From positions 6,041,734 through 6,105,733 of the forward strand of contig JAHRHZ010000069.1 of the NCBI GenBank assembly GCA_024137785.1: a stretch of 64,000 nt of DNA, read 5' to 3'. The position numbers and the translations under genes are program-made. Every line of letters starts with the position of its first letter. The stretch's first letter is position 1. Below the pieces are notes generated by a model. That model was not told where the DNA came from, ran no database searches, and saw only the letters and a program-made list of their open reading frames with translations. This DNA comes from Ginglymostoma cirratum. Taxonomy: Eukaryota. This document shows positions 1,690 to 60,072 of the stretch, in pieces.

Positions 1690-3971
1690 ATGAAGCGATC
1701 ATAATATGGTAGAGTTCAGTCTGCGGTTTGAAAGAGAGAAGGCAAAATCAGATGTAATGGTGTTACAGTTAAATAAAGGTAATTACAGGGGCATGAGAGA
1801 GGAACTGACGAAAATCGACTGGAAGCAGAGCCTAGCGGGGGAAGACAGTAGAGCAACAATGGCAGGAGTTTCTGGGTGTAATTGAGGACATAATACAGAG
1901 GTTCATCCCAAAGAAAAGAAAGATTATCTGGGGGAGGATTAGACAGCCATGGCTGACAAAGGAAGTCAGGAAATGTATCAAAGAAAAAGAAACAGCCTAT
2001 ATAGTGGCCAAGAGCACTGGGAAATCAGAAGATTGGGAAGGGTACAAGAACAAACAGAGGATAACAAAGAGAGAAATAAGGAAGGAGAGGATCAAATATG
2101 AAGGTAGGCTGGCCAGTAATATTAGAAATGATAGTAAAAGTTTCTTTCAATGCATAAGAAACAAACGAGAGGCAAAAGTAGACATTGGGCCGCTCCAAAC
2201 TGATGCTGGAAGGCTAGTGAAGGGAGATAAGGAAATAGCTGAAGAACTTAATAAGTATTTTGCGTCAGTCTTCACAGTGGAAGACATGAGTAATATCCCA
2301 ACAATTAAGGAGAGTCAGGGGGCAGAGTTGAGTATGGTAGGCATTACAAAAGACAAAGTGCTAGAAAAGCTAAAAGGTCTAAAAATTGATAAATCTCCTG
2401 GCCCCGATGGGCTGCATCCTAGAGTCCTGAGGGAGGTGGCTGAGGAAATAGCAGAGGCGTTGGTTGTGATCTTTCAAAAGTCACTGGAGTCAGGGGAAGT
2501 CCCAAAAGATTGGAAAATTGCTGTTGTAACCCCCTTGTTTAAGAAAGGATCAAGGCAAAAGATGGAAAATTATAGGCCCATTAGCCTAACCTCGGTTGTT
2601 GGTAAAATTCTAGAACCTATCGTTAAGAATGAGATTTCTAAATTCTTGGAAGTGCAGGGTCGGATTAGAACAAGTCAGCTTGGATTCAGTAAGGGGAGGT
2701 CATGTCTGACAAACCTGTTAGAATTCTTTGAGGAAGTAACAAGTAGGTTAGACCAGGGAAACCCAGTGGATGTTATCTATCTAGACTTCCAAAAGGCCTT
2801 TGATAAGGTGCGTCACGGGAGGCTGCTGAGTAAGGTGAGGGCCCATGGTGTTCGAGGTGAGTTACTGGCATGGATTGAGGATTGGCTGTCTGACAGAAGG
2901 CAGAGAGTTGGGATAAAAGGCTCTTTTTTGGAATGGCAACCGGTGACAAGTGGTGTCCCGCAGGGTTCAGTGTTGGGGCCGCAGCTGTTCACTTTATATA
3001 TTAATGATCTGGATGAAGGGACTGGGGGCATTCTGGTGAAGTTTGCCGATGATACGAAGTTGGGTGGACAGGCAGGTAGTACGGAGGAGGCGGGGAGGCT
3101 GCAGAATGATTTAGACTGTTTAGGAGAGTGGTCCAGGAAATGGCTGCTGAAATTCAACGTGAGCAAATGTGAGGTCTTGCACCTTGGAAAAAAGAATACA
3201 AGCATGGACTATTTTCTGAACGGTGAGAAAATTCATAAAGCTGAAGTACAAAGGGATCTGGGAGTGCTAGTACAGGATTCTCTAAAGGTTAACTTGCAGG
3301 TTGAGTCTGTGATTAAGAAAGCGAATGGAATGTTGTCATTTATCTCAAGAGGGTTGGAATATAAAAGCAGTGATGTGCTTCTGAGACTTTATAAAGCTCT
3401 AGTTAGCCCCCATTTAGAATACTGTGTCCAATTTTGGGCCCCACACCTCAGGAAGGACATACTGGCACTGGAGCGCGTCCAGCGGAGATTCACATGGATG
3501 ATCCCTGGAATGGTAGACCTAACATATGATGAACGGCTGAGGATCCTGGGATTGTATTCATTAGAGTTTAGAAGGTTGAGGGGAGATCTAATAGAAACTT
3601 ACAAGATAATGCATGGCTTAGAAAGGGTGGACGCTGGGAAGTTGTTTCCGTTAGGTGAGGATACTAGGACCCGTGGGCACAGCCTTAGAATTAGAGGGGG
3701 TCAATTTAGAACAGAAATGAGGAGACATTTCTTCAGCCAGAGAGTGGTGGGCCTGTGGAATTCATTGCCACGGAGCGCAGTGGAGGCAGGGACGTTGAAT
3801 GTCTTCAAGGCAGAGATTGATAAATTCTTGATCTCACAAGGAATCAAGGGCTACGGGGAGAGTGTGGGTAAGTGGAGTTGAAATGCCCATCAGCCATGAT
3901 TAAATGGCGGAGTGGACTCGATGGGCCGAATGGCCTTACTTCCACTCCTACGTCTTATGGTCTTATGAAGC
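1690..3971 (+). mobile_element. Young 5'-truncated CR1 LINE (HER1-like)
   Basis: Begins at the end of the APE endonuclease (SDHNMVEF), with one frameshift near 1840, a long RT ORF, a CR1 3'UTR and a TCTTATGGTCTTATG tail. ATGAAGC occurs at both junctions (1690-1696 and 3965-3971). Confidence 0.95.
2004..3881 (+). CDS. CR1 LINE ORF2 reverse transcriptase (C-terminal 625 aa; endonuclease missing)
   Basis: Motifs KSPGPDG, NYRPISLTS, YLDFQKAFDKV, SGVPQGSVLGP, KFADDTKL, HLEYCVQFWAP and RLRGDLIETYK are all in one open frame. Confidence 0.93.
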   Translation: MAKSTGKSEDWEGYKNKQRITKREIRKERIKYEGRLASNIRNDSKSFFQCIRNKREAKVDIGPLQTDAGRLVKGDKEIAEELNKYFASVFTVEDMSNIPTIKESQGAELSMVGITKDKVLEKLKGLKIDKSPGPDGLHPRVLREVAEEIAEALVVIFQKSLESGEVPKDWKIAVVTPLFKKGSRQKMENYRPISLTSVVGKILEPIVKNEISKFLEVQGRIRTSQLGFSKGRSCLTNLLEFFEEVTSRLDQGNPVDVIYLDFQKAFDKVRHGRLLSKVRAHGVRGELLAWIEDWLSDRRQRVGIKGSFLEWQPVTSGVPQGSVLGPQLFTLYINDLDEGTGGILVKFADDTKLGGQAGSTEEAGRLQNDLDCLGEWSRKWLLKFNVSKCEVLHLGKKNTSMDYFLNGEKIHKAEVQRDLGVLVQDSLKVNLQVESVIKKANGMLSFISRGLEYKSSDVLLRLYKALVSPHLEYCVQFWAPHLRKDILALERVQRRFTWMIPGMVDLTYDERLRILGLYSLEFRRLRGDLIETYKIMHGLERVDAGKLFPLGEDTRTRGHSLRIRGGQFRTEMRRHFFSQRVVGLWNSLPRSAVEAGTLNVFKAEIDKFLISQGIKGYGESVGKWS

Positions 3972-8708: not shown

Positions 8709-8709
8709 T

Positions 8710-10360
8710 TGTGGAAGAGGTTGCAGTGGGAGAAGTGAATACAAGAGACTAGGTTATAAGTAACTGACTGCTTCAGGCTGGAAAATGTGTTTGGGGATTT
8801 GGTCAGTGAGGTGGGAGGAAGTGAAAGGGCAAGTGTTGCACCTTCTGCAATTGCATGAAAAAGTGCCGTGGTGAATCCGAAAGGTAAAGACATATTAGGA
8901 GTGATGAAGGAATAGACCAGATGTCACAGAGGGTCCAGTCTCTGTGGAACACTGACAAAAATGGGGGAGGGGAAACTGCATTTGGTGGTGGTATCCTGCT
9001 GGAGGTCACGGAAATGGTGAGGATGGTTCATTGATGTGGAGATCGGTGCAGTAGAAAGAGAGGACAAGGGGAACATTATCATTGTTCTGGGAGGGAAGGG
9101 AAGGCTGAAATACAGGAAATGTGTTGAATATGGCTGAGGTCCCTGTCAAACATGGTGAGTGGGAATCCTCAGACGCAAAGGCAAGCTTGGCAGAATCACC
9201 CTGTTGGAAGGTGGCATCATTGAAACAGATGGAGACAGAAAAACTGGGAGAATGGAATGGAATCCTTCTAGGTTTAAGGAGGTGTCGTCAAGGCAATTGT
9301 GGGAGTCAGTGGGTTTTTATTGGATATCCCAGAAATGAAAACAATGAAGTCCAGGAAGGGAACAGTCAGAAATGGACCAGGTGAAGATGAGAGAAGGGTG
9401 AAAATTAGAAGCAAAAATGATTTTTTTTCCAATTCTGAATGAGAACAGAAAACAATGTCAATGACATCTTCAATGTATCAGAGAAAGAGTTTGAGTGGGC
9501 GCCAGAGTAAGACTGAAACGAGGAACGTTCCACATACAACATAAAAAAAACTCAGTTGTAACTGGGACCCATGTGCATAACCATGGACCATATCTTTGAC
9601 TTGGAGAAAATGAGAGGAGTTAAAGGAGAAGTTATTCAGAGTGAGGACAAATTGAGCCTGGCGAAGGACGGTGATGGTGGATAGGACCATTCAGGCATTT
9701 TTTCAAGGGAGAAGCAGAGACCTTAAGACCATTCCAGGGGTGGTGGGGGATGGGGTGTGGGGGAGGGGGAGGTAGATGTGTAGGTGAATTGCATGTCCAT
9801 AGTGGAGAAAACTGGCAATTGTGGAACCAACATAAAGTATCAGAGAATTATGAATGTAAGTGGAAGACACTGAACAAGGTGGAACAGAACAGAGTCAGGA
9901 AAGAAAGAAATGACTTTACTGGGGCAAGAACAAGCTGAAATGATAGGTTTACCAGGGCAATCCAGATTGTTGTGTTTTTGGAAGGAGGTAGAAGTGGGCT
10001 GTATGGGTTGGGGGACTATGACGTGGGAAGCTGTTGAGGAGGAGATCTCCAGAGAAGATGAGGTAGTTGACAATCCTGGAAATTACAGGCTGATGTTCAG
10101 GGGTAGGGTCATGATCCAAGGGGAGATAGGAGGAAGTGTTTGAGAGTTGGCACTGAGCCTCTGCCAGGTAGATTTTGGTATACAGACAACAACAGTAGGC
10201 ACTCTCCTCGGCAAGTTTGATAATGAAATCAGTGTTAGACTTGAAGGAATGGAGTGCAGCAGGTTCAGGGGGTGAAAGGTTAGAGTGGTTGAGCAGAGCA
10301 GAGAAGTTAAGGCAGTGAATGCCATAAGAGGTGATCAGATCATTATTTTCCTCTACCATT
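8710..10360 (-). mobile_element. Decayed Penelope-like element (RT + GIY-YIG start)
   Basis: Frameshifted fragments ALHSFKSNTDFIIKLA (KPADKG region), HFYLLPK, DCPGKPIISACSCP, LTLNNFSFNSSHFLQVK, FHRDWTLCD and NLVSCIHFSHCNL are collinear with PLE RT and GIY-YIG. Confidence 0.88.
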
Positions 10361-16850: not shown

Positions 16851-17629
16851 GCACCAGGAAATACACAATAAAGTCTTTACACGCAAACAAAAATCAATGG
16901 GCTTCCAGATCGAACAGCGGATGGAAAAGGTCAGGGAGAATTTTAGAAGCTATTGAGAGCGTTGTATTCCTGGTTGAATGATTTTTAGATGGGCTGAATG
17001 GCTTTCCATTCTCATGATTGCCTTGTGGATCTCATGAATTACTCCATTTCTGATAAGGTTACGTTTGTGCCTCAGAAGGAAGTCTATGCGCTCAAGTTGT
17101 TGTTTTGATTATATTTACCAAATTGCATCTTTTTAACGTAAGAATGTAGGAAAAGTCAGAGATAAGAAGGATTCAAATGGAAAATTAAAAGAAATCCCGC
17201 AGTAAAATCCACTCCCACATTTAATCATCAGCAATTTGTCATCCCTACTGCTTTCACCTCAGTTATTGTTAGCTAGCTAATTTGCTCAGGATGTTTATCA
17301 ATGTTGGAGTAAAAATGCTCGTTCGGCTATGTATTTTAGTATGAAGGGCTGCTAATGCAGCTCCCGTATGGTGATGGTGGTGCAGTTCAATTATTAAATG
17401 TCCAGGCTTTCTCTGCATGCAAGTGAGCTAAAATATTGAACAGGTTGGAACTCTTTATGTGGAATACAGAAGACTGAAGGTGATCTAATATGAAGCAATT
17501 TAATCAGGAGATGTAGAGAAGACAGCTCCACTTCTGGAAAGTTCAAAACTAGACGTAATGAAGCTGAGATGGTTATTGCTAAATCCAATGAGGAATTCAT
17601 GTGAAACTCCTTTCTCAAAGGTTTGGGTT

Positions 17630-18055
17630 GCAAAGAAAAGCTGGATAGGCTAGGACTTTTTTCGCTGGAGCATGAGAGGTTGAGAGGTGACCTTACAGAA
17701 GTTTATAAAGTTGAGGAGTACAGATAGGGTTAATGGTAGGTATCTTTTCCCTAGGATGGGGGATTTCAAGACTAGGGGGCACATTCTTAAAGTGACAGGA
17801 GAGATATTTAAAAAAGACATGGGGATAAAATTGTTTACACAGAGGGTGGTTCGTGTGTGGAATGAACTTCCTGAGGAAGCGGAGGATGTGAGTACAATTA
17901 CAATGTTTAAAAGATATTTTGATAAGTTCATGAATAGGAAAGGTTTGCAAGGATATGGGCCAGAAGAGGCAGCTGGTCCTAGCTTAGTTTGGGATTATGG
18001 TTTGGCATGGACTGGTTAGACCAAAGGGTCTGTTTCCATGCTGTATGACACTATG
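17630..18055 (+). mobile_element. CR1 (HER1-type) 3' fragment
   Basis: ORF 17687-18019 YLFPRMGDFKTRGH...FTQRVVRVWNELPEE, followed by the 3'UTR. Confidence 0.9.
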
Positions 18056-18599: not shown

Positions 18600-18782
18600 G
18601 AAATAAAAGCAAAAATTGCTCAGCAGGTCTGGCGGTATCCGTGGAGAGAGAAACAGTTCACATTTCAAGTACAATAAGACTCTTCTTCAAGTCCTGACTC
18701 TGCCAGACTCATTGGGTTTCTCCAAAAATTTCTGTTCATATTTCAGAATTACAGCATCTGCAGTATTTTGCCTTCTTTTGCC
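18600..18782. mobile_element. Penelope-derived short inverted-repeat element
   Basis: CTCAGCAGGTCTGGCGGTATCCGTGGAGAGAGAAAC ... CTGCCAGACTC...CAGCATCTGCAGTATTTTGC; same family as 21200-21400 and 57076-57450. Confidence 0.6.
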
Positions 18783-21040: not shown

Positions 21041-21199
21041 ATTAGGAAAATATTGCAGTGAAGGGACAAAATGTATGATTATCAAATTTGCTTAATACAC
21101 AAAGATAGGAACGAAAGTAAGTTGTGAGATGGACATAAGGGACCATAAAAAGATGGTGGAAATGTCCATTTTGGCTGAAAGAATTTTTAAAAAAAGCAT

Positions 21200-21402
21200 G
21201 AACAAAACCAAAGTTGCTAGAAATGCTCAGCAGGTATGGCAGCATCTGTGAAGAAAAAATAGAGTTTTTTTTTGGGTTTTGGCTTACCAGACCCGAAACG
21301 TTAACACTGTTTTTCCCTTCACAGATGCTGCCAGACCTGCTGAGCTTTTCCAGCAATTTTGGTTTTCTTCCTGATTTACAGCATCCACAGTTCTTTTGAT
21401 TG
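21200..21402. mobile_element. Penelope-derived palindromic element with TSD
   Basis: Arms AAAGTTGCTAGAAATGCTCAGCAGGTATGGCAGCATCTGTGAAG / CTTCACAGATGCTGCCAGACCTGCTGAGCTTTTCCAGCAATTTT; half-HHR GACCCGAAACGTTA; flanked by TTTTAAAAAAA(A)GCAT at about 21185-21199 and 21403-21418. Confidence 0.8.
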
Positions 21403-22134: not shown

Positions 22135-23405
22135 AGTGATAGGCAGCATGGGTTTGTGTGGGGAAGGCCATTTCTTGTCAATTTGATTGAGTTTTTGAGG
22201 AGATGACAGCAATGATTGATGAGGGAAGTGCAGTGGATGTTAGTATAGCATGGACTTTCGTATAGCATTTGATAAGCTACCTCATGGCAGGCTTGTACAA
22301 AAGGTAGAGTCTCATGGGATCTGGGGTGTGGTGGCTAGTTTGATACAAAACTAGCTTGGTCGTAGAAGACAGAGAGTAATAGTGGAAAGGTGCTTTTTGG
22401 AATGGAGATCAGTAACTAGTGGTGTGCCACAGGGATCAGTGCTGGCATCTTTATAGGTTACAATATATATAAATGATCTGGAGGAAAATGTAAGTGGTTT
22501 GATTAGTGAGTTTGCAGATGGCACCAAAATTGGCAGAGTTGCAGAAAGTCAGGATGATTGACAAAGGATACATCAAGATAAACATCAATTGCAGATTTGG
22601 GCAGAGAAATGGCGAATGGAGTTTAACTGTGAGCTGATGCAATTTGGGAGATTAAATTCAGGTGTGAGTTTGAACCTTTAGGAGCATTGACATGCAGAGG
22701 GATCTGAACGTACAGGTCCACTGATCCCTGAAAGTGGCAACACAGGTGGATGAGATTGTCAAGAAGGCATACAGCACACTTACCTTTTTTGGCCAGGGCT
22801 TCGAAAGTTGGCAAATTATGTTATGGCTGTACAAAACTTTAGTTAGGCCACAATCAGAATGTTGTGTGCACTTCTGATTGTTACACTACCAGGAGAATGT
22901 GGATGGTTTAGAGAGGGTGCAGAGAAGGTTTACCAGGATGTTGCCTGGTCTGGAGGGTTTTAGTTATGAGGAGAGGCTGGATAAACTCAGATTGTTTTCA
23001 CTAGATAGACTGGGGCTGAGGGGTGGCCTGATAGAGGTCTACAAAATTATGGCAGGCATAGATAGATTGGATAGTTAGAGGCTTTTTCCCAGGGTAGAGA
23101 GGTCAACTACAAGAGGGCGCAGGTTCAAGGTGAGTGGGGGGAAGTTTAGGGGAGAAGTGCGGGAAAATTTTTCAAAGGATGGTGGGTGCCTGGAGCACAC
23201 TGCCAGTGGAGGTGGTGGAAACAGGGACGTTAGCAACATTTTAAGTTGTACATTGATAGAAGTGGGAGCAGGAGGCAAACAGAGGGATAGATACCGTGTA
23301 TGGGTAATAAATAGCATGCCTAAATAAGGATTAGGAATTGGCGCAGGCTTGGTGGGCCAAAGGGCCTGTTCCTGTGCTGTGTTGAATTGTATTATATTAT
23401 GTTTT
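22135..23405 (+). mobile_element. CR1 LINE (second subfamily), 3' half
   Basis: GGTGTGCCACAGGGATCAGTGCTGG (GVPQGSVL), FADGTKIG, and ORF LERVQRRFTRMLPGLEGFSYEERLDKL...RGGLIEVYKIM. Confidence 0.9.
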
Positions 23406-45682: not shown

Positions 45683-46613
45683 ATAATGATTGTACATTCT
45701 TTCTTTCTTTAAAATCAGACTACACCATGAAACCTGAGTTCATTATCCAACAACCTTCCAGCAGAAGAATTTACTCGATATTTAGTTTCACCCGTGAGAC
45801 ACAATTTTACCTGTGCCATAAATAATCCTTTGGTTTACTAGATTAGTTTGGGAATAAGAAAGACATCCACACGTATAGCCAGAGGTCAGCCAGATTAATT
45901 TTGCATTTGTCACAGGCAGCTGTCAAATGAAAGACTTGAAGAAATTACGTTAGAATGCCAACAGGAGGGACACATGAACATATCTGTCAAAAACACATGC
46001 CATAAAAAAGAGCACAATACAAAAGATCCATTTGTGGCATATTTGGGAAGTTAAAGCTAGTATTAAGTTAAAATAAGAGGCTTATAATCCTGTGACAAAT
46101 AGTAGTAAGCTCAAGGACTAGAAGTGTTGCAGAAACCTGCAAATGGTAGCCTAAACGTTGGGTAAAAAGGGCTTCTTTGGATGAAAAATTTTTAAGTTTG
46201 TTGGATGTGCAAGCAACTTATTAATGGATGGAGTGTAGTGGTTAATCTATGTTAGTATGCACCCTGCGCCCAATCAAGGAACATGGCGTTGAGAAAAGAG
46301 TCCAGCAGGAAGATATCCCTTGCTTCCTTGATGGCAACCCCCTTCCATGACCTCCATCCATCCACACTCTACTTAAAACCAATTGGTGATCTTCAAGATC
46401 AGCCCCACTTTAGTACAGACAGGGGCCTGCTTTCATAGTGGTGCTGCCATAACTGGAGAATTGCCAGTGTCTGATGGGCTAGTCATTCCCGGAGGCAAGA
46501 TTTAATATCCTACTAGGATATTAATTCAGTGCAACACTGCTGCTGTCCAGGTAAGTGCTTGGTTACCTTGGAGCAGTGTTGAGCCTCCCAGTGAAAGATG
46601 ATAAAAGGTTCCA

Positions 46614-47488
46614 AGTCAGTACAGTGTGGAGCGGGAGGAACACAGCAGGTCAGGCAGCATCAGAGGAGCAGAAGAGTCGACGTTTTGCGTTGGGACCCTT
46701 CATCAGGATTGCTGAGCAGGATCAAGTTTGGTGTAGTTATGATCCTTGATGTCCGACAGGGCAGAGGAAAAGCATTGGTTGAGGGTGTGAATCCTGCGTA
46801 GAACGAAAAGCAATAGAAGTCCTTTGCAGATCTTGGAAAGAGAGGCTCTGAGCTTGGGTAGGGCTGACTGTAGTGAGAAAAGATGCTGGTGCATGGCTAC
46901 GAGCATGCAGCTGAGGAACTACGGAGAAAACCATTTCTGGAGCCTCTGGGTGTACTGTAGATAATGGTTGTCGCAGTTTGGTCCCAAATTGGGATGGTCT
47001 GGATGTTGTTTGGAGTCCATGGGTTATGAGCTGGCTGCGTAGGCAGGTACTGAGAAAGGAGATGGAGCTGTAGTACCGGGTTTGTTTCAGTATGTGGTCG
47101 AAAAGCTTCAGGGCAGAGGAGATTACCCATGGGTTACAGTTGGAGAGAGATCCACTGAGGTCTTTCCAGAGGGAGGCAGACAACTTCTTCAATGTGGACA
47201 TCCTTGGAACAGGCTTCGCAGTAGGGGTTTAAGTCACTCAGATAGCAAGAACTGCAGATGCTGGAGTCAGAGTCAACACAGTCTGGAGCTGGAGGAACAC
47301 AGCAGGTCAGGCAGCATTAGTGGAGCAGGAGAGTTGACGTTTCGGGTCGGGACCCATCTTCAGGTCTGCTCAAATCCCACTCCGAAACGTCAGCTCTCCT
47401 GCTCCTCTGATGCTACCTGACCTGCTGTGTTCCTCCAGCTCTGCACTGTATTGACTCTGACTCCAGCATCTGCAATTCTTGCTATCTC
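46614..47488 (-). mobile_element. Internally deleted Penelope-like element with two tandem HHR-bearing pLTRs and an inverted pLTR
   Basis: ORF 46737-47201 (ALKLFDHILKQTRYYSSISFLSTCLR, PLE N-terminus). HHR motifs at 47336-47363 and 46679-46706. Inverted arms 47240-47345 / 47382-47487. Possible diverged TSD TGATAAAAGGTTCCA / TGATAACGGATTCCCA. Confidence 0.82.
47336..47363 (-). ncRNA. Minimal hammerhead ribozyme motif
   Basis: CUGAAGA-U-GGGUC-CC-GACCC-GAAAC-GUC. Confidence 0.65.
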
Positions 47489-47789
47489 TGATAACGGATT
47501 CCCACTGGTCTCCAACCTGCTGGATCAGACCTCTATCACTTGCATTAAATCTCAGTTTCCACACTTGTTTTCAAGTAAAAGACACAAATATCTTATCAGA
47601 AATAAAGTGTAAATAAGGGGATATTAAGATTGAGGGAGTTACGTAATTCTAGCATTTTTCTTACTGCTGATGTAAAGTTAACAAGTGTGTTGTTCTGTTT
47701 TCCCTCATGCTCCATTCTTAAATAGTGGGATGACATTTCCGACCTAGTTTCAAAATACTTATGCAAAAGGTTAAACTTTTTAAGTTTTT

Positions 47790-49978
47790 AATTAAAAGAA
47801 AATTTTTAATTGGAGTAAGGCAAGTTTTAGTGGTATGATACAAGAACTTTCAAAAGTTGATTGGAGTAGACTGTTAGCAGGTATAAGGATGTCTGACAAG
47901 TGAGAGGTGTTCAAGAGTGTGATGACAAGAGTTTAGAGGCATTATGTTCCTGTTAGAGCAGAGGGTAAGGCCGTTAAGATTAAGGAACAATGGATGAAAA
48001 AAGATATTGAAGTTCTAGTCAAGAATAAAAGAGTATCTTTTTTACATATAGACAACTTGGTTCAATTGAATCTCTTAATCAATATTAAGAGCATGGGGGC
48101 ACTCTGAAGAGAGGAATTGGGAAGGCAAAGAGGGGATATGAGATAGCATTTGCAGATAATGTTAGGGATGATCCAAAGAGATTCTCCAAATACATTAAGA
48201 GCAAGAGGGTAACTAGAGAGAGGGCAGGGCCCCTTAGAGATCAAGGAGGTCATCTATGCATTGAACCCCAAGAGATGGGAGAGATTTTAAATGAATATTT
48301 TGCATCACTTTTTACTGTGGAGACAGAAATGGAGTCGAAAGAATGCAGACAAAATAAACTTTGATGTTTTAAAAACAGTTCACATTGCAGAAGACAACCT
48401 TTGGGAGGCCTTAGAGAATATAAAGGTGGATAAATCTCCGGGACCTGATCTAATATATCCCAGAACGTTGTGTGAGTTAAGGTGAAAAATTGCGAGACCC
48501 CTTATAGAAATATTTGCATCATCTATAACTACCAGTGAGGTGCCAGATGACTGGAGGGTGGCTAATGTTGTACCTTTGTTTATGAAAAGTTGTAAGGAGA
48601 AATTGGGGAACTATAGGCGTGTGAACCTGACTTCAGTTGTGGGTAAATTGTTGGAGGTGATTATAAAAAAATAGGATTTATGGACATTTAGAGAGCCAAA
48701 AATTGATTAGGGATAGTCAGCATGGTTTTGTGCAAAGGAAAATTGTGTCTTTCAAACTTGATCGAGATTTTTGCAGAAGTTGCCGAAACGATTGAGGGCA
48801 GACCAGTAGATATTGTTTATTTGAATTTCAGTAAAGTCGTTGATAAAGTTCCACATGGTAGACTAATCAGTAAAGTTAGTTCACATGGGATTCAGGGTGA
48901 ACTCGCCAACTGGATCCATAATTGGCTTAACAGCAGGAGACAGAGTAATGGTGGAGGGTTGTTTTTTGGACAGAAGGCCTGTGACCAGCAGTGTTCCACA
49001 GGGATTGGTTCTGGGTTCTCTTTTTGTTTCATTCTTATAAATGATTTTGATAAGAATATAAAAGGCATGGTTAGTAAGTTTGCAGATGACACCAAAATTG
49101 GTGGCATAGTAGATGGTGCAGAAGGTTATCTAAGATTACAAAGGGATCTTGATCAAGTGGGCCAATGGGCTGAAAAATGGCAGATGGAATTCAATCTGGA
49201 TGTATGCAAGGTATTGCATTTTGGTACAACAAACAAGGGTAGGCCTTATACAAATAATGGCAGGGCCTTGGGTAGTATTGTAGAACAGAGGGACCTCGGG
49301 GTTCAGATACATAATTCTTTGAAGTTTGCTTCATATATAGACAGGATGGTTAAAAAGGCATTTGGCACGCTTGCCATCATTGCTCAGTCCTTTGAGTATG
49401 GGAGTTGGGGAGTCATGTTGAGGTTGTACAGGACATTGGTGAGATCTCTTCTGGAGCACTGTGTCTAGTTATGGTCGCCTGTTATAGGAAAGATATTATT
49501 AAACTGGAGAGGGTTCAGAAGACATCTACAAGGATGCTGCTGGGTATGGAAGGTTTGAGTTGCAAAGAAAGGCTGGGACTTTTCTCACTGGAGTGTAGGA
49601 GGTTGAGAGATGACTTGATAGAAGTTTATAAAATAATGACCGGTGTAGATAGAGTTAGTAGTAGTTATCTTTTCCGTAGAATATGGGATTTCAAGACTAA
49701 GGGACATAGGTTTAAGGTGAGGGAAGAGAGATTTAAAAAAAGACATAAGAGGCAAAGTTTTTACATGGAGGGTTGTTTACGTGAGGAATGAACTTTCCGA
49801 GGAAGTGGGGATGTGGGTATAATTACAATATTGAAAAGATATTTGGATAGATATGTGAATAGGAAAGGTTTGGAGGGATATGAGCCAGGAACAGGTAGGT
49901 GTACTAGTTTAGTTTGGGATCACGTTCGGCATGGACTGGTTGGACCAAATGGCCTGTTTCCTAGCTGTATGACTCTGA
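47790..49978 (+). mobile_element. 5'-truncated CR1 LINE, frameshifted
   Basis: IKVDKSPGPD, ORF 48722-49468 (YLNFSKVVDKVPH, KFADDTKIGG, WQMEFN), RRLRDDLIEVYKIM and the 3' tail GCTGTATGACTCT. Confidence 0.93.
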
Positions 49979-50262
49979 CCACCCAACCCACAACAATTGT
50001 TCCAGAATCTACAGATTTTTAGAAGGTAATCACCAGTGCATTGACTTCCTCTATAGCCATCTCCTTTAACTCTTTAGGAAACAGACCTTCAGGTCAACTT
50101 CTGACTCCATTAATTTCCCCAGTACAGTCTTATTATTGATGATAATTTCATTCAGCTTCTCAATCTCTCTAGTCATGATGTGGAGGTGCCAGTGTTGGTC
50201 TGGCATGGACAAGGTCAGAAATCACACTACACGAGCTTAAAGTCCAACAGGTTTATTTGAAA

Positions 50263-50299
50263 ACACAAGCTTTCATAGTCTTACTCCTTCTTCAGGTGT
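50263..50299 (-). ncRNA. Minimal type-I hammerhead motif (stem II partly decayed)
   Basis: ACAC-CUGAAGA-A-GGAGU-AAG-ACUAU-GAAAG-CUU-GUGU; stem I ACAC/GUGU and palindromic AAGCUU. Confidence 0.55.
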
Positions 50300-51070
50300 C
50301 AGTGAGATAGGTGGTATCAGACACAGAATTTATAAGTAAAAGATCAAAAAGTCACACCATCATTGAGGATGTATTAAACAAATTTAAGATGCTATTAAAT
50401 CTTTAATCAGAGAGAAGGTTATAATTGGTTAATATGTATATGTAAATCTCCGAATTCCTTCAAGATCCTATCCTGTGAGAACTAAAGGTTTTATCAGTGT
50501 AAACAAGAGGTGACATTTTAGGTCAGACAATGCATGTTAGGTGTGAGGCCTTGTTTAGAATCTGTTTGTGTTTTGGTTTAGAGTCTGACAGTCTCATGCA
50601 GATCCTCTCAGACGCACATTGTCTCTTGCACATACACATGCGTGCAAGCGCGCACACACACGAGTCTATGGGGTAAATTTGTATTTGCAGATACATTCTA
50701 TTTTGTTCAAAAAGCGCACAATTGATAGACAGTCAGTCAATGTGGCATTTTCTAAATTCCTACTTTAGAAATAAAGTGAGTCTGACTCCAAACCAAAACA
50801 CAAACAGATTCTAAACAAGTCCTCACACCTAACGTGCAATATCTGACCTAAAATGTCACCTCTTCTTTACACTGATAAAACCTTTAGTTCTCCCAGGATA
50901 GGAAATTGGAAGGAATTTGGAGATATACATATACATATTAATTAATTAAAACCTTCTAACTGATTGAAGATTTAACAGCTTCTGAGGATTGTTTAGCACA
51001 TCCTCATCAATGGTGTGACCCTTTGATCTTTTATGCATAAATTCTGTGTCTGATACTTCCTCTCTCACTG

Positions 51071-51107
51071 ACACCTGAAGAAAGAGTGAGGCTCAGAAAT
51101 CTTGTGT
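51071..51107 (+). ncRNA. Minimal type-I hammerhead motif (decayed)
   Basis: ACAC-CUGAAGA-A-AGAGU-GAG-GCUCA-GAAAU-CUU-GUGU. Confidence 0.5.
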
Positions 51108-52254
51108 TTTCAAATAAACCTGTTGGACTATGACCTGGTGTTGTGTGATTTCTAATCTCTCTAGCTACTTGGAGCTCTACTTCTGAAAACAGATACAAAG
51201 TAATAATTTAGCTTCTCTGCTATTTCTTTATTCCCCATTATGAATTATGTGACTCTGCCTTTAATGAACCCCCATCCATTTTAACTAAATGTTTCCTTTT
51301 TATGTATCTACAGAAGCTTTTACAATCTTTTTTTTTGCTAGGTTGCATTCATATTCTGTACTCCCCATCCTTATCAGTTTCTTGGTCCTCCTGGGTTGTA
51401 TTTCAAAAACCTCTCAGTACTCAGAATGACTGCTATTCTGGCAACTTTAGAGGCTTTTTGTTTTAACTTTTTACAATCCTGAACTTTGTTCATAATCTTC
51501 GTGACTGATCTTTGAGAGTGTTTGCACCTTGAAGGAATGTACAGTTTCTGTAGATTATGTGACAGTTCTATAAAGGCGATCTATTGCCTATGTACACTTA
51601 TGCAATAAATAGCCAAGGCACATCAGAAGCTGTAAGGGGTAAAGTCTGACTTGGAGTATGCCATCATTATCAAATGCACTGATTTGAATTGCTTTGAAAT
51701 GTCCTGGAGAAAAGAAAAGACTGCTTTAGTTCTTCTACTTAAAGTTCCAGATGGTGACAGAACTGGCCATGCTTCATGAGGATTTGTGCCTGTATGCTGG
51801 TATTTGTCACTGTAACTACTTGTCCTCAAAAGTCTGAACTTATTTCCAGCATGTGGAGCTGAACGCGCGCGGGTTGAGAAGTAGACAATTTCCAGCTGCA
51901 TCAGAATTATGCCCGGTGAGTGAAATCCTGTCAATATTTCCAAACTGTTTATTAGTTAGGTCTCCTCAGTGCTATCGAGGGTAGACCTGATAGTGTTCTT
52001 TGACAATTCCGTCAATAGCACACCCCAATTATGTTATTACTGCTTATCTTTTCAGATAGAAATTAACTGACCAATGACTACCAGTGATATCAGTGGAGTT
52101 ACTTATAAGAATCATCAACAGATTATGAACAGTCCACATCAGAAAGTTTAGTGCTTGATGTTCAAGTTTCCATTATTCCTGATTGCCTGGGAGAGTAGGG
52201 AACAGAACAATATGGTTCAGCTATGTTCTATTGCCAGTGCATCAGTGTTGAGAT

Positions 52255-54979: not shown

Positions 54980-55265
54980 GAGATAAAAGGTACTGCAGAT
55001 GCTGGAGAATCCGAGAAAGCAAGGTGTGGGGCTGGATGAACACAGCAGGCCAAGCAGCAGCATAGGAGCAGGAAAGCTTGACGTTTCGGGCCTAGACCCT
55101 TCATCAGAAATGTGGGAGGGGAAGAGGGTTCTGAAATAAATAGGGAGAGAGGGGGAGGCGGATAGAGGATGGAGAGAGGAGAGGATAGGTGGAGAGGAGG
55201 CAGACAAGTCGAAGAGGCGGGGATGGAGCCAGTAAAGGTGAGTGTAGGTAGGGGGGTAGCCTACC
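54980..55265 (-). mobile_element. Young Penelope solo pLTR with a perfect 13-bp TSD
   Basis: TSD TATTGCTAGCCTA (54967-54979 and 55266-55278); pyrimidine-rich leader, HHR and tail. Confidence 0.9.
55074..55113 (-). ncRNA. Minimal hammerhead ribozyme with intact core
   Basis: ACAUUU-CUGAUGA-A-GGGU-CUAG-GCCC-GAAAC-GUC-AAGCUU. Confidence 0.75.
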
Positions 55266-57075: not shown

Positions 57076-57168
57076 GAAACAAAAACAGAAGTTGCTGGAA
57101 AAGCTCAGCAGGTCTGGCAGCATCTGTGAAGAAAAATCAGAGTTAATGTTTCGGGTCTGGTGACCCTT
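57076..57168 (-). mobile_element. Short Penelope tail insertion
   Basis: On the minus strand GGGTCACCAGACCCGAAACATTA (half-HHR). Flanks CCTCCGTTTTTT / CCTCCCTTTTTT (57064-57075 and 57169-57180). Confidence 0.7.
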
Positions 57169-57279
57169 CCTCCCTTTTTTACCAGGGTCTCCAGTCTGCC
57201 TGAATGCTGTACTTGTGCTTCTGAACAAGGTGTCTTGCAGTGAACTGCTGGTGTTATTGCCCGCCTGGCAATCTGATTT

Positions 57280-57452
57280 GAGTTAACATTTTGAGTCCAG
57301 TATGATTCTTCCTCAGAACTCTGAAGAAGGGTCATACCAGGCTTGAAATGTTAACTCTTTCTCTCTCTGTTGATGATGTCAGACTTGCTGAGTTTCTCCA
57401 GCAAGCTCTGTTTGTTTTGGACTTCCAGCACACGCAGTATTTTGGCTTTTAT
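57280..57452. mobile_element. Penelope-derived element with a back-to-back HHR palindrome
   Basis: 57280-57357 is an imperfect palindrome: CTGAAGAAGGGTC...GAAATGTTA on + and CTGAGGAAGAATC...AAAATGTTA on -. Confidence 0.7.
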
Positions 57453-59842: not shown

Positions 59843-60072
59843 TGCAGAGGGTGGTGCGTGTATGGAATGAGTTGCCAGAGGAAGTGGTGGAGGCTGGTAT
59901 AATTACGACATTTAAAAGGCATCTGGATGGGTATATGAATAGGAAGGCTTTAGAGGGATATGGGCCAAATACTGGCAAATGGGACCAGATTAATTTAGGA
60001 TGTCTGGTCAGCATGGACAAGTTGGACTGAAGGATCTGTTTCCATACTGTCCAGCTATATAACTCCATGACT
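59843..60072 (+). mobile_element. CR1 (HER1-type) 3' end
   Basis: QRVVRVWNELPEEVVEAGIITTFKRHLDGYM plus the 3'UTR. Confidence 0.9.

Follow-up and report, generated by a model that had tools for sequence, protein, structure and literature searches.

A decayed hammerhead-bearing Penelope-like insertion in Ginglymostoma cirratum and a family-wide junction that points to how its RNA was copied

A 64,000-nt stretch of Ginglymostoma cirratum DNA (assembly GCA_024137785.1, contig JAHRHZ010000069.1, positions 6,041,734 to 6,105,733, forward strand; hereafter the window) holds two hammerhead motifs on the same strand, with a piece of a Penelope-like element (PLE) between them. Such a pair raises the question of whether the unit is an amplified, retrozyme-like element released by its own hammerheads, as an earlier note on this DNA had proposed, or a by-product of the copying of its parent.

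Layout of the unit and its parent family

Read on the minus strand from 47487 to 46614, the 875-nt unit runs through an inverted arm, a hammerhead, a tail, the start of an ORF, a second hammerhead and a second tail (Table 1). The motif positions confirmed that the hammerheads lie 657 nt apart on one strand, as the earlier note had stated, and a 100-nt direct repeat (46614-46713 and 47271-47370, 85% identity) has the same spacing of 657. The inverted copy of the tail, which had been put at about 105 bp, is present, but it is 113 nt long and also holds the 3′ half of the hammerhead; when the whole insert was folded, this arm paired with the 3′ half of the upstream hammerhead and its tail. A degenerate 14-nt repeat, missed earlier, flanks the insert with 11 of 14 positions identical and is likely a target-site duplication. 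As it is flush with both insert ends, the 875-nt unit most likely arrived in one event. Both modules open with a G, followed by a C and then the stem I strand.

Table 1. Features of the unit and its flanks (window coordinates)
Feature	Position	Strand	Remarks
Target-site duplication, left copy (likely)	47489..47502	-	14 nt, 11/14 identical to 46599-46612; read from flanks
Inverted arm: hammerhead 3′ half and long form of tail	47375..47487	+	113 nt, 89% identity to 47240-47352; arm at long site
Putative RNA 5′ end (47368) and preceding G (47369)	47368..47369	-	Placed from sequence and family pattern
Upstream minimal type I hammerhead	47332..47367	-	Core intact, stem I damaged; predicted cut after 47336
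5′ pLTR tail region	47240..47331	-	Both family end points: 47271 (short), 47240 (long)
PLE ORF N-terminal fragment, ATG at 47201	46715..47201	-	Body profile 5-524 of 3256
Junction: three non-ORF bases ending in G (46714-46712) and putative RNA 5′ end (46711)	46711..46714	-	
Downstream minimal hammerhead	46675..46710	-	G12>A, one stem II pair lost; predicted cut after 46679
Downstream tail	46614..46674	-	Stops at short family end point; 31 nt shorter than arm
Target-site duplication, right copy (likely)	46599..46612	-	Read from flanks

The ORF piece had been described as an N-terminal fragment with neither RT nor endonuclease, and both Pfam and the family profile agree: Pfam returned nothing meaningful for the window copy's ORF, RT and GIY-YIG being absent, and the fragment covers about 490 of the ~3,200 nt of the element body. 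It keeps the true frame for about 73 codons only, followed by a frameshift at 46983-46984, where other copies lack one base. Among sequencing-run contigs, one from run X4 spans the junction (window 46649-46948) with 17 differences in 300 nt and is possibly the same insertion in a related organism. The tail module (46620-46707 and 47236-47499) is ~1000 times deeper in such contigs than the ORF piece, a ratio that is not a copy number but suggests that solo stubs far outnumber copies with an ORF.

The upstream motif runs from CUGAAGA at 47363 to a GAAAC-GUC ending at 47336, and the downstream one from CUGAUGA at 46706 to a GUC ending at 46679, with the predicted cut positions where the earlier note had put them. 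The G12>A change and broken stem II reported for the downstream motif were confirmed, the stem II loss amounting to one of four pairs, and the upstream motif has lost both core-adjacent pairs of stem I, a defect overlooked before. With the downstream core broken and the upstream stem I damaged, the window copy is probably dead, as had been supposed. The G12>A change lies at a CpG and occurs in 47 of 189 family modules (some loci counted twice), suggesting common CpG decay, so that both hammerheads of the window copy were probably intact at insertion. The core and the palindromic ACGU are conserved across the 189 modules. Rfam found no hammerhead between 44000 and 50000, only chance matches of the inverted repeat to miRNA hairpins, and the window hammerheads are called from their sequence and their homology to the family. 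Neither motif gave a hammerhead fold when folded alone, as expected of minimal motifs, and the description of the locus as a non-coding PLE derivative with minimal, dimer-type hammerheads holds.

A protein search of the 4.36-Gb genome with the ORF fragment gave 6,046 candidates, the best 150 of which were scored. Judging by sequence, the parent is a ~3.5-kb Neptune-type PLE with RT and GIY-YIG. Longer stretches of 20 copies are laid out as hammerhead, tail, ORF, 3′ UTR, hammerhead and tail, with the ORF starting 162 nt after the hammerhead core. Translated sister copies give the ORF order RT, C-X4-C-xx-C linker and GIY-YIG, and in one full-length copy (L073) RVT_1 (E 2.6e-6) and GIY-YIG (E 2.9e-4) both fall just under Pfam's cut-offs. 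The family has the features that mark EN+ PLEs, namely one ORF with RT and then GIY-YIG, partial-tandem pLTRs with an optional 5′ inverted copy and a 30-40-nt tail at one end (the two ends of the window copy differ by 31 nt), and a minimal type I hammerhead in the pLTR. Its linker fits the CX2-5CxxC pattern between RT and EN that defines Neptune in the available text of PMC8557442, and the Neptune/Nematis layout matches the parent; linker and domain layout are what the Neptune placement is drawn from. The family falls into two subfamilies. No sampled copy is more than about 86% identical to the window copy, so the latter is old.

Junctions in the window copy and its relatives

Whether the unit was amplified can be read from the joint between its ORF piece and the downstream hammerhead, and the earlier note had itself named a joint unique to this locus as the outcome that would speak against its proposal. 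That is the outcome we obtained. A 90-nt query across the junction gave 29 matches, of which only the window and one other locus (L013) cross both sides, and the L013 joint differs. In the locus search, 35 of the 39 other matches stop before the hammerhead and run on into the ORF; the remaining four enter the hammerhead, and the three that were read (L004, L013 and L021) all have different joints. Among 154 copies, those whose break points lie closest to that of the window copy rank 11th-42nd in similarity to it, and among 141 they rank 7th-38th. The window joint is private among all copies examined, and since the genome searches score the best candidates only, a small hidden family is compatible with this result.

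The idea of an amplified unit supposes that a hammerhead dimer cuts out a monomer of 657 nt, which then becomes a circle and is put back into the genome by the enzyme of the parent; it draws on the same-strand pair with its retrozyme-like spacing, on the probable integrity of both motifs at insertion, on the recurrence of a few other break points, and on the derivation of vertebrate retrozymes from PLE pLTRs given in the accessible part of bioRxiv 10.64898/2026.07.22.740005. However, the joint is unshared and copies with nearby joints are not the closest relatives. A circular template would also put the same ORF sequence before the upstream hammerhead, where it is absent, and the unit has no TATA-like motif upstream. 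Both cores are kept in none of 36 comparable short copies, the downstream G12>A would in a dimer block the upstream cut, and folding predicts that the upstream motif would be hidden inside a 113-bp hairpin in a read-through RNA. [quoted passage not shown] We regard amplification of this unit as largely refuted already and highly improbable, and describe the unit as a non-autonomous PLE by-product; judged by complete units in tandem and by amplification, it does not qualify as a retrozyme.

Some ORF break points do recur within one subfamily, at profile positions 487-489 (L129, L170, L242, L255 and L179), just before an A-rich run, at 321-326 (L165, L274, L254 and L258) and at 1821-1823 (L087 and L171), and these may mark preferred RNA ends. 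Near 324 and at 487-489 the recurring joints are nearly alike. Families sharing a joint near 287, 324, 487, 524 or 1821 were considered and rejected, as their members are not mutual nearest relatives (best rank 5th); the near-identical joint pairs L165/L274 and L129/L255 may reflect a hotspot or a tiny family. Six short copies (L093, L110, L146, L155, L156 and L172) still have 120-630 nt of 3′-end sequence with the TATA-like motif in it, and are better candidates for a non-autonomous family than the window unit. No joint is common to any two of the six, and in L093 and L146 the joint is repeated in the inverted part.

To place the window joint among its counterparts, we profiled 129 of the best 150 protein-search copies (window excluded) and 29 junction-search copies; these samples are best matches and not random copies. 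In the 129 copies, the ORF is joined directly to the hammerhead in 56 and through the 3′ UTR in 55, while 14 have no joint in range and 4 are joined inside the module. On the ORF side, the direct joints are spread over profile positions 248-2423, the lower limit being set by the query. The hammerhead side is fixed: among 69 joints, the 49 with a readable stem I strand were scored (20 outside the scoring rule were left out), and all 49 keep 4-8 nt before CUGA. The base preceding this fixed point is G in 29, A in 12 and T in 8, against an expected 24.5% G from the non-C bases of the ORF strand (p 2e-7), and the next two bases beyond are G in only 7/49 and 4/49. Filler matching neither side occurs in 38 joints, ending in G in 27 and otherwise A-rich, and the 11 of 49 without filler leave room for microhomology.

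This pattern was reproduced in a new set for which the scoring rule was fixed before the sequences were fetched (80 more loci, minus 21 duplicates and one without 5′ body, leaving 58 copies). Direct joints were found in 28 of the 58, at ORF positions 189-1474, and G precedes the fixed point in 11 of the 22 that could be scored, with 6 outside the rule (p 0.009) and no G one base further. Three further joints gave one G. About 45% of scored joints lack the G, two direct joints (L250 and L278) retain about 20-30 nt of UTR, and the 5′ boundaries of inserts have no enrichment for G (9/24, p 0.17). The window junction is a one-off among the copies examined, yet no random deletion: dozens of independent copies have the same fixed point on the hammerhead side, a clue to the way in which the RNA was copied.

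Ordinary two-sided internal deletions do occur in the family (22 are listed), and an AG follows a pyrimidine tract in one subfamily, so we weighed whether a full-length insertion lost its middle by DNA deletion or whether the RNA was spliced from donors in the ORF to an acceptor before the hammerhead. A DNA deletion gives no reason for one side to be fixed to 4-9 nt, for an added G, or for a tie to the state of the 5′ pLTR. Splicing was rejected on the joint sequences, which retain the AG itself and up to four preceding C's; the other subfamily has no AG, and at most break points the ORF does not continue with GT. Taken together, we hold either route to be improbable.

Template ends, product classes and the proposed copying route

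YYANWYY is the initiator pattern. At the fixed point in intact UTRs, it is matched in 66 of 73 modules, in both subfamilies, against a background of 1.6% per position, and TATTTATT begins 31 nt before that point in 55 of the 73 UTR-preceded modules (some loci counted twice). The fixed point therefore looks like a putative transcription start, initiator-like and with the TATA-like TATTTATT upstream; the latter doubles as an antisense poly(A) signal. For L1 and SVA, the available text of PMC3287187 attributes an extra G at the start of retrocopies to cap copying; that G lies at the junction with host DNA, whereas the one described here sits within the insertion, at the proposed jump. RT passing from the end of one RNA to another likewise has a known precedent. 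An untemplated addition at the end of any template could also account for the G, and in AG-AGTC joints a brief fold-back on stem I would equally give it.

The copies fall into two classes. Among 156 copies, 21 have the UTR both upstream and downstream, none has the UTR upstream with a direct joint, 5 start at the hammerhead with the UTR downstream, and 35 start at the hammerhead with a direct joint (two-by-two p 5e-12). In the new set, hammerhead-start copies comprise 18 direct and 4 UTR joints, and the 4 UTR-upstream copies, whose far ends are out of range, include no direct joint. The 3′ UTR is thus present in the 5′ pLTR of 0 of 53 direct-joint, hammerhead-start copies and of no other short copy, versus 21 of 26 UTR-ended copies, and nine copies open at the hammerhead but retain the downstream UTR. 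In the canonical class, the upstream UTR piece measures 72 to >516 nt and is joined seamlessly.

These counts bear on a further possibility, that RT, on an RNA that is longer or circular, stalls at a roadblock (stem I, or a pyrimidine tract that makes the cDNA G-rich) and moves over to a site within the ORF. The fixed point does lie at the edge of stem I and a C-rich tract, the 11 of 49 filler-free joints may use microhomology, and the nine copies just mentioned stop at the point upstream, yet passed it downstream. However, of 26 copies that went past the point once, 21 did so a second time, versus 0 of 35 (plus 18) direct-joint copies with a 5′ end defined as hammerhead-start or UTR. The stop therefore goes with the template, and an RNA that physically ends there accounts for this better than a roadblock does. 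Neither the extra G nor the initiator/TATA spacing is predicted by stalling, and we consider it unlikely.

Two other properties of the copies concern their modules and ends. In short copies, the two modules of one copy are more alike than modules across nearest copies in 27 of 36 cases (0.877 vs 0.861, p 0.0015), as expected if one RNA end was copied twice; the same test gave 14 of 26 for canonical copies. Of 26 copies with an arm, 21 have their arm and their downstream end at opposite tail sites, and the window copy follows suit, its arm being at the long site and its downstream module at the short one. Opposite sites match the two RT start sites and two-strand extension of a lizard PLE in vitro, as described in the accessible sections of PMC11167929.

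We propose that the locus is probably a single decayed Neptune-type PLE insertion, for which RT ran off the uncleaved, capped 5′ end of its RNA and jumped to the 3′ end of an RNA cut short. The start of transcription would lie within the 3′ UTR of a partial-tandem master, 31 nt below TATTTATT and 4-9 nt ahead of the core of the hammerhead, and the RNA would stop early in the ORF. Such an RNA would carry one hammerhead and form no dimer, and it would therefore stay uncleaved and keep its cap; that minimal hammerheads need a dimer for cleavage comes from the available part of PMC4209133. RT would then start inside the RNA at one of the two tail sites, in line with the lizard PLE, for which the same sections of PMC11167929 report internal starts at two sites, extension of both strands, and unprocessed RNA as the main substrate. 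It would copy ~100 nt to the cap, adding the extra G as a copy of the cap, jump to the truncated and often A-tailed 3′ end, copy the ORF piece, tail and hammerhead, and reach the cap again. A second cDNA, started at the other tail site and on the other target strand, would give the inverted arm. Had RT jumped from the cap to a 3′ end left by hammerhead cleavage, the core would be duplicated; this is seen in 0 of 210 sequences, and the 5′ boundaries of upstream modules show no peak at the cleavage site.

More tentatively, and with less confidence than in the jump itself, the two classes may reflect the number of hammerheads in the RNA. With RT starting about 100-130 nt from the capped 5′ end, a wrap-round would be needed to reach the ORF. 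One-hammerhead RNAs, to which this locus and nearly half of the sampled copies would trace back, would wrap by a jump from cap to 3′ end and leave the G, whereas two-hammerhead RNAs would self-cleave as a dimer and wrap seamlessly, via either a circle or a jump from end to end, to yield the canonical partial tandem and restore the promoter. A hammerhead-made circle, as proposed in the available text of PMC4209133, fits the canonical class, and so does read-through of tandem masters. If this scheme is true, the short copies provide the Penelope cycle with a natural control, and the genome records both the in vivo role of the hammerhead and the regeneration of the pLTR.

Related systems and other elements in the window

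Much of this organization is known from other PLEs. In the available portions of PMC8557442 and PMC4209133, Neptune-type EN+ PLEs have partial-tandem pLTRs, a 5′ inverted truncated copy, a 30-40-nt tail and a minimal hammerhead, as here, and share RT, a Zn-finger-like linker and GIY-YIG with the parent; the copies described in those portions are 5′-truncated or partial-tandem, whereas the class with a variable ORF side, a fixed point and an extra G is the one seen here. PAc, a Poseidon element of Anolis, is similar in its two RT start sites bounding the tail, the extension of both target strands and the use of uncleaved RNA, but its ORF begins inside the hammerhead (PMC11167929, accessible sections) and not 162 nt after the core. 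The joints here appear to record how RT behaves at the RNA 5′ end and its route to the ORF, beyond what those sections cover.

In Adineta vaga, the available text of PMC3846280 describes a Pen2 deletion derivative that is likewise a one-off deleted copy with an inverted pLTR and a target-site duplication, a pLTR with TATA and initiator-like motifs, and a Pen1 3′ pLTR joined to variable sequence. The differences are that the Pen2 deletion is ascribed to microhomology, that Pen1 picks up host DNA, and that the text leans to an antisense, self-priming template, whereas a sense, capped template suits the joints here. Metazoan non-LTR retrozymes (PMC7229834 and bioRxiv 10.64898/2026.07.22.740005, in the parts available) resemble the unit in their direct-repeat type I hammerheads, relation to PLEs, non-coding nature and, in vertebrates, dependence on dimers, but their units are amplified, in tandem and complete in their motifs, with circular RNAs in the cases tested, in contrast to the single unit, private joint, ORF remnant and broken motifs found here. 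The literature that we covered, with Repbase notes, supplements and most subscription papers outside its scope, gave no account of this junction class or of the evidence from its extra G, its initiator and the two classes.

The locus itself is an ordinary dead repeat, but the joint signature of its family gives a lead, open to testing, on one step of PLE transposition, and the sister-copy joints bear on the open question raised by Schostak et al. A fixed stop, marked by G, at a predicted start site, together with two separated classes of product, gives an exact nucleotide to examine. The locus also calls for caution, as two hammerheads separated by some hundreds of bases are, in genomes of this kind, usually a by-product of copying and not a retrozyme.

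Other repeats lie in the same window. A 1.6-kb internal piece of the same PLE family (profile 1141-2781) is found at 8709-10325 on the minus strand, and further hammerhead-plus-tail stubs are at 55007-55255 (minus strand), 1-68, 21193-21377, 57082-57402 and 18609-18689; some stubs belong to a second PLE family with a longer stem II, and some are fold-backs. Decayed LINE copies, which we take to be CR1-like, include one with an RT fragment at 48089-49968 on the plus strand (RVT_1 E 1.5e-8 at 48707-49465), with LINE repeats also near 2380-3605, 17609-18044, 22364-23045 and 59845-60050. An inverted-repeat element of ~950 nt at 50212-51158, with arms of 250 and 129 nt at 84-92%, is unrelated to the tail studied here.
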